Made by a program: the position numbers and the translations under genes | Source: a virus | Taxonomy: Duplodnaviria; Heunggongvirae; Uroviricota; Caudoviricetes | DNA: 16,405 nucleotides | IMG/VR virus record: IMGVR_UViG_2563366929_000009 | Direction: 5' to 3' (one strand) | The notes under the pieces: generated by a model | Databases searched by the model: none | Told to the model about the DNA's origin: nothing | The model's input: only the letters and a program-made list of their open reading frames with translations | Shown here: piece after piece, positions 3,994-16,405 of the stretch | Layout of the letters: every line of letters begins with the position of its first letter | How positions within the stretch are numbered: the stretch's first letter is position 1

Positions 3994-4269
3994 GTGGCTT
4001 CTGTTTCTATCAGCTGTCCCTCCTGTTCAGCTACTGACGGGGTGGTGCGTAACGGCAAAAGCACCGCCGGACATCAGCGCTATCTCTGCTCTCACTGCCG
4101 TAAAACATGGCAACTGCAGTTCACTTACACCGCTTCTCAACCCGGTACGTACCAGAAAATCATTGATATGGCCATGAATGGCGTTGGATGCCGGGCAACA
4201 GCCCGCATTATGGGCGTTGGCCTCAACACGATTTTACGTCACTTAAAAAACTCAGGCCGCAGTCGGTAA
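3994..4269 (+). CDS. insA: IS1 InsA (transposition inhibitor / N-terminal part of InsAB' transposase)
   Basis: 91-aa [27 protein letters not shown].. recognised as IS1 InsA. Confidence 0.9.
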
Positions 4270-4691
4270 CCTCGCGCATACAGCCGGGCAGTGATGTGAT
4301 TGTCTGCGCTGAAATGGACGAACAGTGGGGCTATGTCGGGGCTAAATCGCGCCAGCGCTGGCTGTTTTACGCGTATGACAGGCTCCGGAAGACGGTTGTT
4401 GCGCACGTATTCGGTGAACGCACTATGGCGACGCTGGGGCGTCTTATGAGCCTGCTGTCACCCTTTGACGTGGTGATATGGATGACGGATGGCTGGCCGC
4501 TGTATGAATCCCGCCTGAAGGGAAAGCTGCACGTAATCAGCAAGCGATATACGCAGCGAATTGAGCGGCATAACCTGAATCTGAGGCAGCACCTGGCACG
4601 GCTGGGACGGAAGTCGCTGTCGTTCTCAAAATCGGTGGAGCTGCATGACAAAGTCATCGGGCATTATCTGAACATAAAACACTATCAATAA
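4188..4691 (+). CDS. insB: IS1 InsB' reading frame (expressed as InsAB' transposase by -1 frameshift)
   Basis: -1 frame relative to insA and overlapping its 3' end; A6C slippery motif at 4243..4251. Sequence ..[30 protein letters not shown].. is typical IS1 InsB. Confidence 0.88.
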
Positions 4692-6582: not shown

Positions 6583-6793
6583 TTTTATATTGGCGAGGTG
6601 ACGGGAGTTAAGTAGAATTGCTGCGGGTGCTTGAGGCTATCTGCCTCAGGCATGAACACCAAAGGCAGATAGAGAAAAGCCCCAGTTAATATTACGCGTC
6701 CTGCAAGACGCTTAACATTAATCTGAGGCTCAATCTATGAACGGCAAATCTAGGTTAGCCTCTTACGTGCCGAAAGGCAAGGAGAAGCAGGCT

Positions 6794-6949
6794 ATGAAGC
6801 AGCAAAAGGCGATGTTAATCGCCCTGATCGTCATCTGTTTAACCGTCATAGTGACGGCACTGGTAACGAGGAAAGACCTCTGCGAGGTACGAATCCGAAC
6901 CGGCCAGACGGAGGTCGCTGTCTTCACAGTTTACGAACCTGAGGAGTAA
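6794..6949 (+). CDS. hokD: Hok/Gef-family type I toxin (HokD/RelF-like, 51 aa)
   Basis: MKQQKAMLIALIVICLTVIVTALVTRKDLCEVRIRTGQTEVAVFTVYEPEE is near-identical to my recollection of HokD. GGAGA Shine-Dalgarno 9 nt upstream. The in-frame upstream extension from 6737 (ORF-track 70-aa ORF) may be a mok-like leader ORF. Hairpin GGCGAGGG-agaaat-CCCTCGCC follows the stop, as at hok mRNA 3' ends. Confidence 0.85.
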   Translation: MKQQKAMLIALIVICLTVIVTALVTRKDLCEVRIRTGQTEVAVFTVYEPEE

Positions 6950-8455: not shown

Positions 8456-8830
8456 ATGCTCATAGATTTGGTTTTACCTTACCCGCCGACGGTGAACACT
8501 TACTGGCGACGCCGTGGCAGCACATATTTTATCTCGGAGGAGGGAAAGCGTTATCGCCGGGCTGTGGCGCTTATTGTTCGCCAGCAGCGGCTGAAATTAA
8601 GCCTGTCCGGAAGGCTGGCGATAAAGGTGATTGCAGAGCCACCGGATAAGCGTCGTCGCGACCTGGACAATATCCTGAAAGCACCGCTGGATGCGCTGAC
8701 GCATGCGGGAGTGTTAATGGACGATGAGCAGTTTGATGAAATCAATATCGTTCGTGGTCAGCCAGTATCTGGTGGACGTATGGGGGTGAAGATTTACCCC
8801 ATAATGCATGAAGAGCAGGTCAAAAAATGA
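8456..8830 (+). CDS. rusA: RusA Holliday-junction resolvase
   Basis: 124 aa. Motifs ..PPTVNTYWRR.. and ..PDKRRRDLDNILKAPLDALTHAGVLMDDEQ.. match the RusA family (catalytic Asp cluster). AGGTGA Shine-Dalgarno. Confidence 0.9.
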   Translation: MLIDLVLPYPPTVNTYWRRRGSTYFISEEGKRYRRAVALIVRQQRLKLSLSGRLAIKVIAEPPDKRRRDLDNILKAPLDALTHAGVLMDDEQFDEINIVRGQPVSGGRMGVKIYPIMHEEQVKK

Positions 8831-9648
8831 AACTGGAAGATTTACCGAAATACTACTCCCCAAAATCCCCTGGCCTGACCGATGCATCGGCCTCAACGTC
8901 AAAAGATGCGCTGAGTATCACTGATGTGATGGCCGCGCAGGGCATGACACAGAATCGGGCTGAGATGGGGTTTTCTGCGTTCCTGGGGAAAATGGGCATC
9001 AGTATGAATGACAGGGCGCGGGCAACAGAATTACTGGCAGATTATGCACTCAGTCGGTGCGATCGTGTGGCGGCGTTGAGAAAACTTCCGGCAGAAATAA
9101 AACCGGTAGTGATGCGCATTATGGCTTCGTATGCGTTTGAAGATTATGCCCGTAGCGCGGCGAGCAAAAAACAGTGCCCTTGCTGTCACGGAAAAAAATT
9201 TATTGAAAGCGAGGTTTTTACAAACAAGATCCAGTATCCGGATGGTAAGCCACCAGTGTGGGCAAAGTGCACAAAAGGCGTGTATCCGTCTTACTGGGAA
9301 GAATGGAAAAAAGTCAGGGAGGTGGTAAAAGTTGCCTGTCCGGAGTGTGGCGGAAAGGGTGAGGTTTCCACCGCCTGTAAGGATTGCCGTGGGCGTGGTG
9401 TCGCCATTCATCGTGAAGAGTCGGTAAAACGTGGTATGCCTGTTATCAGAGATTGCCAGCGTTGTGGTGGTCGTGGCTGTGAAAGGCTGCCATCAACGGA
9501 GGCATTTAATGCCATATGCAAAGTGACGAGTGCTATCACGCTTGATACGTGGAAAAAATCAGTGAAACGCTTTTACGATACGTTGGTGGTTCGGTTTGAC
9601 ATTGAAGAGGCATGGGCGGAGCGGCAGTTAAAGAGGGTAACGCGATAG
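8827..9648 (+). CDS. Q: Late-gene antitermination protein Q-like
   Basis: 273 aa. Start overlaps the rusA stop (ATGA). Lies directly upstream of a pR'-like promoter. Carries four CxxCxGxG-type Cys repeats (CPCCHGKK, CPECGGKG, CKDCRGRG, CQRCGGRG). Confidence 0.8.
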   Translation: MKLEDLPKYYSPKSPGLTDASASTSKDALSITDVMAAQGMTQNRAEMGFSAFLGKMGISMNDRARATELLADYALSRCDRVAALRKLPAEIKPVVMRIMASYAFEDYARSAASKKQCPCCHGKKFIESEVFTNKIQYPDGKPPVWAKCTKGVYPSYWEEWKKVREVVKVACPECGGKGEVSTACKDCRGRGVAIHREESVKRGMPVIRDCQRCGGRGCERLPSTEAFNAICKVTSAITLDTWKKSVKRFYDTLVVRFDIEEAWAERQLKRVTR

Positions 9649-9730: not shown

Positions 9731-9752
9731 CCCGCCGCCTGGCGGGTTTTTT
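9731..9752 (+). terminator. Intrinsic terminator tR'-like
   Basis: Stem CCCGCC / GGCGGG with loop GCCT followed by a T6 run, about 45 nt downstream of the pR' start region. Confidence 0.75.
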
Positions 9753-11270: not shown

Positions 11271-11319
11271 AACGGATGAGATTGCAGAATTAATTACGCA
11301 CCATTATTATTCTGCTCCC

Positions 11320-11395
11320 GGCCCTTTAGCTCAGTGGTGAGAGCGAGCGACTCATAATCGCCAGGTCGCTGGTTCAAATCCAGCAAGGGCCACCA
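11320..11395 (+). tRNA. ileZ: tRNA with CAT anticodon, most likely tRNA-Ile2 (lysidine-type, ileZ-like); tRNA-Met not excluded
   Basis: 76 nt with encoded CCA. Acceptor stem GGCCCTT/AAGGGCC, D-arm AGCTCAGTGGTGAGAGC, anticodon loop CTCATAA, T-arm GGTTCAAATCC. Resembles my recollection of E. coli ileX. Confidence 0.85.
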
Positions 11396-11402
11396 TCACA
11401 TA

Positions 11403-11479
11403 CCGCCATTAGCTCATCAGGAAAGAGCGCCAGCCTTCGAAGCTGGTTGCGCGGAGTTCGGGTCCCCGAAGGCGGTCCA
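11403..11479 (+). tRNA. tRNA-like sequence with UCG (Arg) anticodon; degenerate, possibly a pseudogene
   Basis: Cloverleaf can be drawn (anticodon loop CTTCGAA) but with A.A mismatch in the acceptor stem, a mismatch in the T-stem and an atypical T-loop TTCGGGT (G at the conserved A58 position). Confidence 0.45.
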
Positions 11480-11492
11480 TTATCTGTATCCT

Positions 11493-11569
11493 GCGTTGTT
11501 AGCTCAGCCGGACAGAGCAATTGCCTTCTAAGCAATCGGTCACTGGTTCGAATCCAGTACAACGCGCCA
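11493..11569 (+). tRNA. tRNA-Arg (anticodon UCU)
   Basis: 77 nt. Acceptor GCGTTGT/ACAACGC, discriminator G and CCA. Anticodon stem ATTGC/GCAAT with loop CTTCTAA. T-arm GGTTCGAATCC. Confidence 0.85.
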
Positions 11570-11584
11570 CACTTATTTTCCCTG

Positions 11585-11608
11585 GCTCGCTTTTGCGGGC
11601 TTTTTTTT
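11585..11608 (+). terminator. Intrinsic terminator after the tRNA cluster
   Basis: GCTCGC-tttt-GCGGGC hairpin (one G.U pair) followed by a T8 run. Confidence 0.6.
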
Positions 11609-11614
11609 AAATGT

Positions 11615-11828
11615 CTCACAATTCAGGCGGTTGACTGTTGTCTGGTTTGCGGGGAGTTTGTTAAAAGAAACTGGCATGGTGAATCCCCCTGTGCGGAGGG
11701 GCAATCAGCGAGTAGGTATATGGGATAATCGCGGATTCAGGTGCTGGTACTGAATTCACCGGGAGGCACCCGGCACCATGCAATGGCACATAGCGCCACT
11801 CTCCAGCCCCTCTCCGGAGGGGCTTTTC
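11615..11828 (+). repeat. Structured unit A: promoter-like element, hairpin, SD-ATG and terminator modules
   Basis: Shares conserved blocks with unit B: CTCACAATTCAG, GTTGAC, TTTGTTAAAA, GCATGGTGAATCCCCCTG.GCGGAGGGGC, GGTATA, TCACCGGGAGGCACCCGGCACCATG, AGCCCCTCTCCGGAGGGG+T-run. Blocks are separated by divergent spacers. Tiny ORFs at 11778..11903 (41 aa) and coupled 11903..12004 (33 aa). Confidence 0.6.
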
Positions 11829-12018
11829 TGTGCCGGATACATCACAGTTTCTGGAACCTTAGGTACTACAGTATCAGTCAGGGTGCTATATTTTCAGATG
11901 TGATGAAAGCCTGTCAGCAGGCAGGGCGTATCGGAAATGACCCAGTAGAGAAAACGTTGACTCAGATACCGGTGCTGAGTTACCGGGAAACCGGCATCAC
12001 ATGACCGCTATCCTTCCA

Positions 12019-12082: not shown

Positions 12083-12316
12083 CTCACAATTCAGTAAGTT
12101 GACAGTTGCCTGTCAGACTGGGCATTTGTTAAAAAAATTTCGCATGGTGAATCCCCCTGAGCGGAGGGGCGACTGGTGACGGTATAATCTCTGATTATCA
12201 AAACGAGAATGACGCGGGTTTAGTGGCACCGGGCTGAACTCACCGGGAGGCACCCGGCACCATGTGCATGATGATACAGATACGCGGCTTTAGCCCCTCT
12301 CCGGAGGGGTTTTCTT
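12083..12316 (+). repeat. Structured unit B (paralogue of unit A)
   Basis: Same conserved module set as unit A. Includes consensus -35 TTGACA (12099..12104) and consensus -10 TATAAT (12183..12188). Terminator CCCCTC-tccg-GAGGGG + TTTT at 12294..12316. Confidence 0.6.
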
Positions 12317-12322
12317 GTGGGC

Positions 12323-15640: not shown

Positions 15641-15679
15641 TGGATATTTGTAATCCATCTGAAAACCCCTGCTGTAGCA

Positions 15680-16405
15680 TAATGCCGATCAGTTAAGGAT
15701 CAGTTGACCGATCCAGTGGCTGTGTAAGAATCCGGAAACGCTCACTTGTTTCCGGATTTTTTTATGCACATTGGACAGGCTCTTGATCTGGTATCCCGTT
15801 ACGATTCTCTGCGTAACCCACTGACTTCTCTGGGGGATTACCTCGACCCCGAACTCATCTCTCGTTGCCTTGCCGAATCAGGTACTGTAACGCTACGCAA
15901 GCGCCGTCTTCCCCTCGAAATGATGGTCTGGTGTATTGTTGGCATGGCGCTTGAGCGTAAAGAACCTCTTCACCAGATTGTGAATCGCCTGGACATCATG
16001 CTGCCGGGCAATCGCCCCTTCGTTGCCCCCAGTGCCGTTATTCAGGCCCGCCAGCGCCTGGGAAGTGAGGCTGTCCGCCGCGTGTTCACGAAAACAGCGC
16101 AGCTCTGGCATAACGCCACGCCGCATCCGCACTGGTGCGGCCTGACCCTGCTGGCCATCGATGGTGTGTTCTGGCGCACACCGGATACACCAGAGAACGA
16201 TGCAGCCTTCCCCCGCCAGACACATGCCGGGAACCCGGCGCTCTACCCGCAGGTCAAAATGGTCTGCCAGATGGAACTGACCAGCCATCTGCTGACGGCT
16301 GCAGCCTTCGGCACGATGAAGAACAGCGAAAATGAGCTTGCTGAGCAACTTATAGAACAAACCGGCGATAACACTCTGACGTTAATGGATAAAGGTTATT
16401 ACTCA
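15680..16405 (+). mobile_element. IS4: IS4-like insertion sequence, left part (runs past the window end)
   Basis: Sequence from TAATGCCGATCAGTTAAGG matches my recollection of the IS4 terminus. It is followed by a 10-bp-stem hairpin plus T7 (15730..15764) and the transposase start. The right end is outside the window, so the boundary is approximate. Confidence 0.7.
15764..16405 (+). CDS. IS4-family transposase, N-terminal 214 codons (partial, continues beyond window)
   Basis: Frame open from ATG 15764 to the window end with no stop. [36 protein letters not shown].. recognised as IS4 transposase. Absent from the ORF track because no stop lies inside the window. Confidence 0.8.

Follow-up and report, generated by a model that had tools for sequence, protein, structure and literature searches.

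The stretch of DNA analysed here (the window, 16,405 nucleotides) carries three tRNA genes in a row, and the middle one raises a question of function: is a cloverleaf with a UCG anticodon and mismatches in its stems a working tRNA of unusual structure, or a gene in decay? E. coli K-12 has the Arg anticodons ACG (argQVYZ), CCG (argX), UCU (argU) and CCU (argW), and to our knowledge there is no UCG Arg tRNA, nor any U34 tRNA for CGA/CGG, in E. coli. An earlier note, made from the letters of the sequence, had left the choice open between a decaying paralogue and a functional unusual tRNA that would adapt the prophage to rare CGA/CGG codons.

Identity and setting of the middle gene

Scoring with ARAGORN, which had been proposed as a check, gave three + strand tRNA calls in the window, with the anticodons CAT, TCG (Arg) and TCT (Arg). 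The middle call is a cloverleaf of 77 nt with exactly the boundaries drawn in the earlier note (Table 1), and the calls on either side bear out its placement between a tRNA-Ile2(CAU) and a tRNA-Arg(UCU). With the Rfam tRNA model RF00005, which has a gathering score of 29 bits, ileZ obtained 72.5, argN 43.4 and argO 70.1 bits. The middle gene is the weakest of the three and lies above the gathering threshold (E = 1.7e-06), and all three are far above chance level by Rfam score. The RefSeq (PGAP) labels for the cluster are tRNA-Ile, tRNA-Arg and tRNA-Arg, and argN is not labelled as a pseudogene. The first label agrees with the description of that gene as Ile2-like, as does the 933W record, where it is ileZ and reads AUA.

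Comparison with related lambdoid phages, also suggested at the outset, found the same trio in 933W and Stx2a_1447, whose records label it ileZ, argN and argO. The 933W record gives the codons read as 'AUA', 'CGH; CGG?' and 'AGA; AGG?', and annotates terminators on both sides of the cluster. It is essentially certain that the element in the window is argN, the middle gene of ileZ-argN-argO. What had been described as a tRNA-like element of no named kind is therefore a known gene, named in the 933W GenBank record AF125520. A literature search on the tRNA genes of the cluster returned nothing relevant, and the gene names rest on GenBank annotations.

The window covers the left portion of a lambdoid prophage, which is inserted beside ompW. 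Its genes are ordered int, xis, exo, IS1, hokD/sok, DUF968, rusA, Q and a small ORF, followed by an N6_N4 DNA methylase, the tRNAs, two STnc100 copies and the lysis genes. The IS1 element stands in place of the immunity and replication region, so that the prophage must be regarded as defective. A terminator-like site (9731-9746) was found by the terminator scan just downstream of Q, and the tRNA cluster follows Q within the late transcription unit. A putative tRNA promoter, pT, is annotated in the 933W record at a distance of 10-38 nt before ileZ; this stretch aligns with the window ungapped and with few substitutions. The counterpart in the window was not called by a simple promoter scan, and a putative promoter function can be attributed to it only by way of the 933W annotation. 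The hairpin after argO is conserved with the 'possible rho-independent terminator upstream of the stx genes' of 933W.

Several other features of the prophage were recorded. The hokD toxin ORF (about 6794-6949) and sok form a type I toxin-antitoxin module in the nin region. Each STnc100 copy ends in a terminator hairpin, and the pair fills the slot that holds stx in Stx phages; in Stx2a_1447 (L002) an STnc100 copy lies directly 3' of stx2B, and in the IMG/VR loci L015, L020 and L128 the anti-GcvB sRNA AgvB adjoins STnc100 on the opposite strand. Up to position 15679 the window agrees at 100% with the best-matching genomes; over the last ~730 bases (15680-16405) it differs from them, which suggests a mosaic junction in or near the DUF1398 gene. 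The methylase upstream of the cluster was considered as the 16S rRNA methyltransferase of Stx phages (PMC10810198) and rejected, as the gene here is an N6_N4_Mtase; the enzyme of that study, gp5, belongs to the MT-A70 proteins and has its gene at another place in the Stx phage.

Table 1. Positions in the window of the tRNA cluster, its signals and the neighbouring prophage features
Feature	Position	Strand	Evidence
IS1 element, directly after the exonuclease gene	3994-4691	+	
sok antitoxin RNA	6625-6799	+	RF01794, 113 bits
Late antiterminator Q gene	8827..9648	+	Pfam Antiterm PF03589, E = 2e-49; RefSeq 'antitermination protein'
Counterpart of 933W putative promoter pT (TTGCAG, 17 nt, TATTAT)	11282..11310	+	Alignment to 933W
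ileZ, tRNA-Ile2(CAU), reads AUA, first of cluster	11320..11395	+	ARAGORN, Rfam, annotation
argN, tRNA-Arg(UCG), degenerate allele	11403..11479	+	ARAGORN, Rfam tRNA, RefSeq tRNA-Arg, 933W orthology
argO, tRNA-Arg(UCU), reads AGA/AGG, third of cluster	11493..11569	+	ARAGORN, Rfam, annotation
Terminator-like hairpin and T run, directly after argO	11584..11601	+	Terminator scan
STnc100 sRNA, two tandem copies	11645-11835, 12113-12322	+	RF02076, 136 and 161 bits

Structure of the allele and origin of its three changes

The cmscan alignment shows argN of the window with a non-standard pair in each of two stems, A6·A67 (acceptor stem) and A52·C62 (T stem), and with a T-loop UUCGGGU in which G58 replaces the near-universal A58. 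The stem mismatches and non-canonical T-loop noticed earlier by reading the sequence are thus present. Standard pairs are formed at 19 of 21 positions, short of a fully paired 7/4/5/5 cloverleaf, and inspection by eye revealed no alternative register of the T arm giving a canonical 5-bp stem and 7-nt loop. No damage is seen in the D arm, in the anticodon loop CUUCGAA or in the encoded CCA. U8, A14, G18G19, U33 and T54-Psi55-C56 are kept, A58 being the only one of the conserved tertiary bases that is missing, and the discriminator base is U. Read from the sequence, the D-loop AUCAGGAAA has A20, and C35 and G36 are also present; A20, C35 and G/U36 are what we take to be the identity elements for E. 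coli ArgRS. Some functional tRNAs do tolerate a lone A·C or A·A mismatch. The acceptor pair, the T-stem pair and the A58 contact matter for folding, for binding of EF-Tu and for escape from RNA quality control.

Minimum-energy folding gives weak guidance here, the best folds of ileZ and argO not being cloverleaves either. Since such folding alone would be an unfair test, the energies of the cloverleaf were compared between alleles. The predicted value was -20.0 kcal/mol for the window allele versus -28 to -31 kcal/mol for canonical alleles, a predicted stability cost of about 8-11 kcal/mol. The predicted minimum-energy fold of the window allele (-27.0 kcal/mol) has a UUCGG-GUCC-CCGAA hairpin instead of the T arm, and this hairpin uses the bases G58 and A67.

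Alleles for comparison were collected by two IMG/VR scans, one with an argN-pattern anchor and the other with a nearly invariant ileZ anchor, which together gave at least about 190 loci; the samples are redundant E. coli prophages, among the matches listed. The majority of the argN alleles in these listed matches are clean cloverleaves. The clean gene of the 933W type has the T arm CGGGG-UUCGAGU-CCUCG and the acceptor strands CCGCCAU/AUGGCGG. Canonical alleles score 54-58 Rfam bits, the window allele being about 12 bits lower, and relative to them it carries the changes G52A, A58G and U67A, each of which damages the structure. When 48 distinct alleles of the argN scaffold were aligned, 96.5% of cells held standard pairs. 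Position 6:67 was unpaired in 10 of these alleles and 52:62 in 8, without exception alleles that are window-type or closely related to it; in the others both positions hold standard pairs. G52, A58 and U67 are common to E. albertii, 933W and a Lys-like outgroup, and A52, G58 and A67 of the window are therefore derived. Partial intermediates were found as well, with A58G alone (L020) or U67A alone (L100), and sub-lineages of the window type add CCA>TCA, G50A and G10T. Judged by its sequence, the window allele has one of the marks of a pseudogene, namely derived, structure-disrupting substitutions relative to intact orthologues.

Fate of the middle slot and demand for its codons

The 401-nt cluster region was matched in 297 phage records, mostly Stx2-converting, and in 3194 of 5426 complete E. 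coli genomes; it is 100% identical in 042, S88, UM146, NU14 and ATCC 11775. An exact copy of the window allele of argN is present in 246 E. coli genome records. These represent several lineages, with S88, UM146, 042, ATCC 11775 and an O157:H16 strain among them; the 933W allele is exact in 275. In the phage collection none of the 261 records matching argN was more than 92.2% identical to the window allele, and the phage alleles inspected (933W, Stx2a_1447) are canonical. The window allele occurs in chromosomal prophages, among them that of E. coli 042, which has a fuller gene set with the P gene kept. The number of records and the gene-rich prophages among them indicate that the allele is not confined to obviously dead prophages.

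The three genes of the cluster vary to different extents. Among the IMG/VR loci listed, 7 alleles of ileZ were found in 97 loci, 35 of argN in 98 and 25 of argO in 87, and the ileZ sequence was identical in 88 of its 97 loci. At the loci with argN still recognisable, nucleotide diversity came to 0.083 in argN, 0.047 in argO and 0.008 in ileZ (free positions), and to 0.21 in the 13-nt spacer. Outside the cluster, before ileZ and after argO, the flanks are mosaic, with no gap-free alignment, and were for this reason unusable as a neutral yardstick. Segregating sites in the window-type clade numbered 3 in argN, 1 in ileZ and 2 in argO, too few for a test of constraint.

A census of the slot that is unbiased regarding argN was made with the first 80 matches listed in the ileZ-anchored scan, 73 of which could be evaluated. 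An intact UCG gene was present in 23 loci and a gene with point defects in 21 (11 of them of the window type); the others were 23 remnants disrupted by indels, 5 Lys(UUU)-like relatives and 1 UCU-switched allele. Defects in the neighbouring genes of the same sample were found at 11 of 63 loci for argO and 4 of 73 for ileZ. The remnants have the anticodon arm replaced or deleted, or are fusions of argN with argO, and are called neither by ARAGORN nor by Rfam. Further lesions were present in 53 of 58 loci with G58 and in 16 of 72 with A58. These loci are not phylogenetically independent, but decay among them has followed no fewer than four or five separate routes. The wrecked remnants (for example L125, L128 and L133) occupy the same slot between ileZ and argO and have the same scaffold ends as the window allele, and many share its G58. 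They differ from it in receiving no tRNA call, whereas the window allele, in which all the changes are point changes, still receives one. These sequence data count as support for the view that constraint on the argN slot may have been relaxed at the level of the family, with ileZ almost invariant.

Some loci show rearrangements of a different kind. In L133, L147 and L171 the 5' half of argN is joined to the 3' half of argO at GCCTTC, the anticodon-loop sequence common to both genes, with the deletion of one gene length, as if the two Arg tRNA genes had recombined. Some loci with argN of the window type also have a damaged argO, in which C62>A and C68>G break pairs of the T stem and acceptor stem, so that decay in these loci is not limited to argN. 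In L137 the anticodon of an otherwise canonical argN is changed from UCG to UCU by G36>U, giving two tandem UCU Arg tRNAs. A Lys-like relative of the scaffold occupies the slot after ileZ in L126, L140, L143-L145, L156, L174 and others, and is followed by tRNA-Thr(UGU) and tRNA-Gly(UCC). Its acceptor strands are CCGCCAC/GUGGCGG, with a compensatory C7-G66 pair, and its anticodon loop is CCUUUAA; ARAGORN calls it Lys(UUU), yet it has C33 for U33 and an A51·C63 mismatch. From its sequence it looks like a remodelling of the anticodon on the argN backbone.

The proposed adaptation to CGA/CGG usage held for one of the two codons. CGG is enriched 2-3.4 times in the prophage (10.3-15.8 per 1000 codons vs 4.6 in flanking host genes), and no enrichment of CGA over flanking host genes was found. 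AGA, AGG and AUA are 1.5-10 times commoner in the prophage than in flanking host genes, and stx2AB contains 15 AUA, 8 AGR and 5 CGA/CGG codons. These codon counts fit a selection that is weaker on argN than on its neighbours ileZ and argO.

Readings of the window allele and its known relatives

Canonical argN would be transcribed together with ileZ and argO, starting at the putative pT and/or as part of the Q-dependent late transcript; it would then be cut out by host tRNA-processing enzymes and charged by ArgRS, and would read CGA/CGG. In lambdoid phages of the Stx type this operon lies between the Q/methylase region and the late genes, where stx sits. In the window allele, G52A breaks a T-stem pair, A58G removes the T54-A58 tertiary pair and U67A breaks an acceptor-stem pair. 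The three changes together would destabilise the cloverleaf and favour the competing hairpin, and the RNA would probably be poorly processed, stabilised or used. Given the loss of the acceptor pair, the T-stem pair and the A58 contact, we rate as most likely, with moderate confidence, that argN of the window is a decaying and probably poorly functional allele of a known gene at an early stage of decay. The decaying paralogue of the earlier note is thus the option to be favoured for this allele, on the strength of its three derived damaging bases and of the later decay stages in the same slot of related prophages. The functional unusual tRNA aptly describes the canonical argN of Stx phages with its clean cloverleaf, and is less favoured for the allele of the window.

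The decay reading has to be set against the possibility that the allele is still a working tRNA-Arg(UCG) of odd structure, which reads CGG/CGA in the late genes and in which the changes are tolerated or near-neutral. We consider this unlikely, if deserving of some weight. It would explain why the allele passes both ARAGORN and the Rfam threshold and is labelled tRNA-Arg in RefSeq, why the anticodon loop, the D arm, the bases A20, C35 and G36 and the CCA are intact, and why the exact sequence recurs in so many genome records, gene-rich prophages included. The enrichment of CGG means that some demand for argN exists, and within the window-type clade argN varies no more than the neighbouring genes. 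Against it, each of the three derived bases falls on a paired stem position or on the A58 tertiary contact, and the allele stands some 12 bits and 8-11 kcal/mol behind canonical alleles. Alleles with G58 repeatedly gather further lesions, in sub-lineages the encoded CCA or one more stem pair is gone, and the window allele is absent from all the sequenced phage records. These points weigh more heavily with us, and it is from them that we infer a loss of function.

The same changes could be explained in another way, if the allele had been repurposed as a structured RNA other than a tRNA. In the folding model A58G and U67A would create a 5-bp hairpin (UUCGG/CCGAA) in place of the T arm, stacked on a 5-bp acceptor helix, and G52A would weaken the T stem, so that all three changes push one way; the alternative fold is predicted to be 7 kcal/mol better than the cloverleaf. 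Possible roles would be a spacer or punctuation for the maturation of ileZ and argO, or a decoy against an anticodon nuclease or other tRNA-targeting defence. If true, the wide and identical retention of the allele in hundreds of E. coli genomes would serve another function. This we regard as very improbable: the hairpin shows neither covariation nor independent recurrence, alleles with A58G only and U67A only are what drift and recombination should produce, related lineages simply disintegrate, and no known function needs such an element between tRNAs. About five later mutations in the clade are too few to test conservation of the hairpin. A chance cloverleaf, a mere spacer between two real tRNA genes, has virtually no probability left and is rejected. 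It is suggested by the low score relative to the neighbours and by nothing more, and is already refuted both by 43.4 bits against a threshold of 29 and by orthology to canonical argN at the same position in hundreds of phages.

For argN itself little is at stake. Of the three phage tRNAs ileZ is almost frozen and argN is the expendable one, with alleles that range from clean cloverleaves through every stage to rubble. The pattern speaks for a cluster retained chiefly for the decoding of AUA and AGA/AGG. It also suggests that many E. coli prophage copies labelled 'tRNA-Arg' automatically make the functional tRNA set look larger than it is. Caution is advisable with window-type alleles and their relatives when prophage tRNAs are counted as codon adaptation or used as integration or typing markers. 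The decay series of the middle slot is a small comparative addition and not a new kind of element.

The closest known system is argN of 933W (AF125520; also in Stx2 phages, AP012536), where the order is the same as in the window: Q, tRNA cluster, late genes. The two argN genes are identical at 70 of 77 bases (90.9% over 77 nt). Both argN and argO align gap-free, and the spacing is the same save for one 2-nt indel in the spacer between ileZ and argN. Both argN genes have the scaffold CCGCCAU...GGCGGUCCA, the UCG anticodon arm and the U discriminator, and both clusters have a like pT-like promoter upstream and a terminator downstream. They differ in that the 933W gene forms a clean cloverleaf, with G52-C62, A6-U67 and UUCGAGU, whereas the window has A52·C62, A6·A67 and UUCGGGU, and in that the cluster is followed by two STnc100 copies in the window prophage and by stx in Stx phages.

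In one-genome-per-species data the argN scaffold was confined to Escherichia and two contigs of metagenome-assembled genomes, labelled Proteobacteria bacterium and Collinsella, which carry an ileZ-argN-argO cluster of the E. coli type. The remaining matches are unrelated bacterial tRNA-Arg(UCG) genes with the anticodon arm alone in common. Such chromosomal genes of Planctomycetota, Omnitrophota and Terriglobia have an anticodon arm (GCCAGCCUUCGAAGCUGG) identical to that of argN and a similar D stem, but differ in G1-C72, a usual D-loop (AACUGGAUA), an A/G discriminator and a canonical T arm. They lack close similarity in the acceptor and T arm and are therefore not close relatives of argN. In SfI, Sf6, P21 and ST64T tRNA genes are likewise placed downstream of Q, in an arrangement as here, although the tRNA species differ from argN (Asn GUU, Thr UGU); for tRNAs at this site in lambdoid phages it has been proposed that they supplement codons which the phage uses above the level of the host (PMC3636060).
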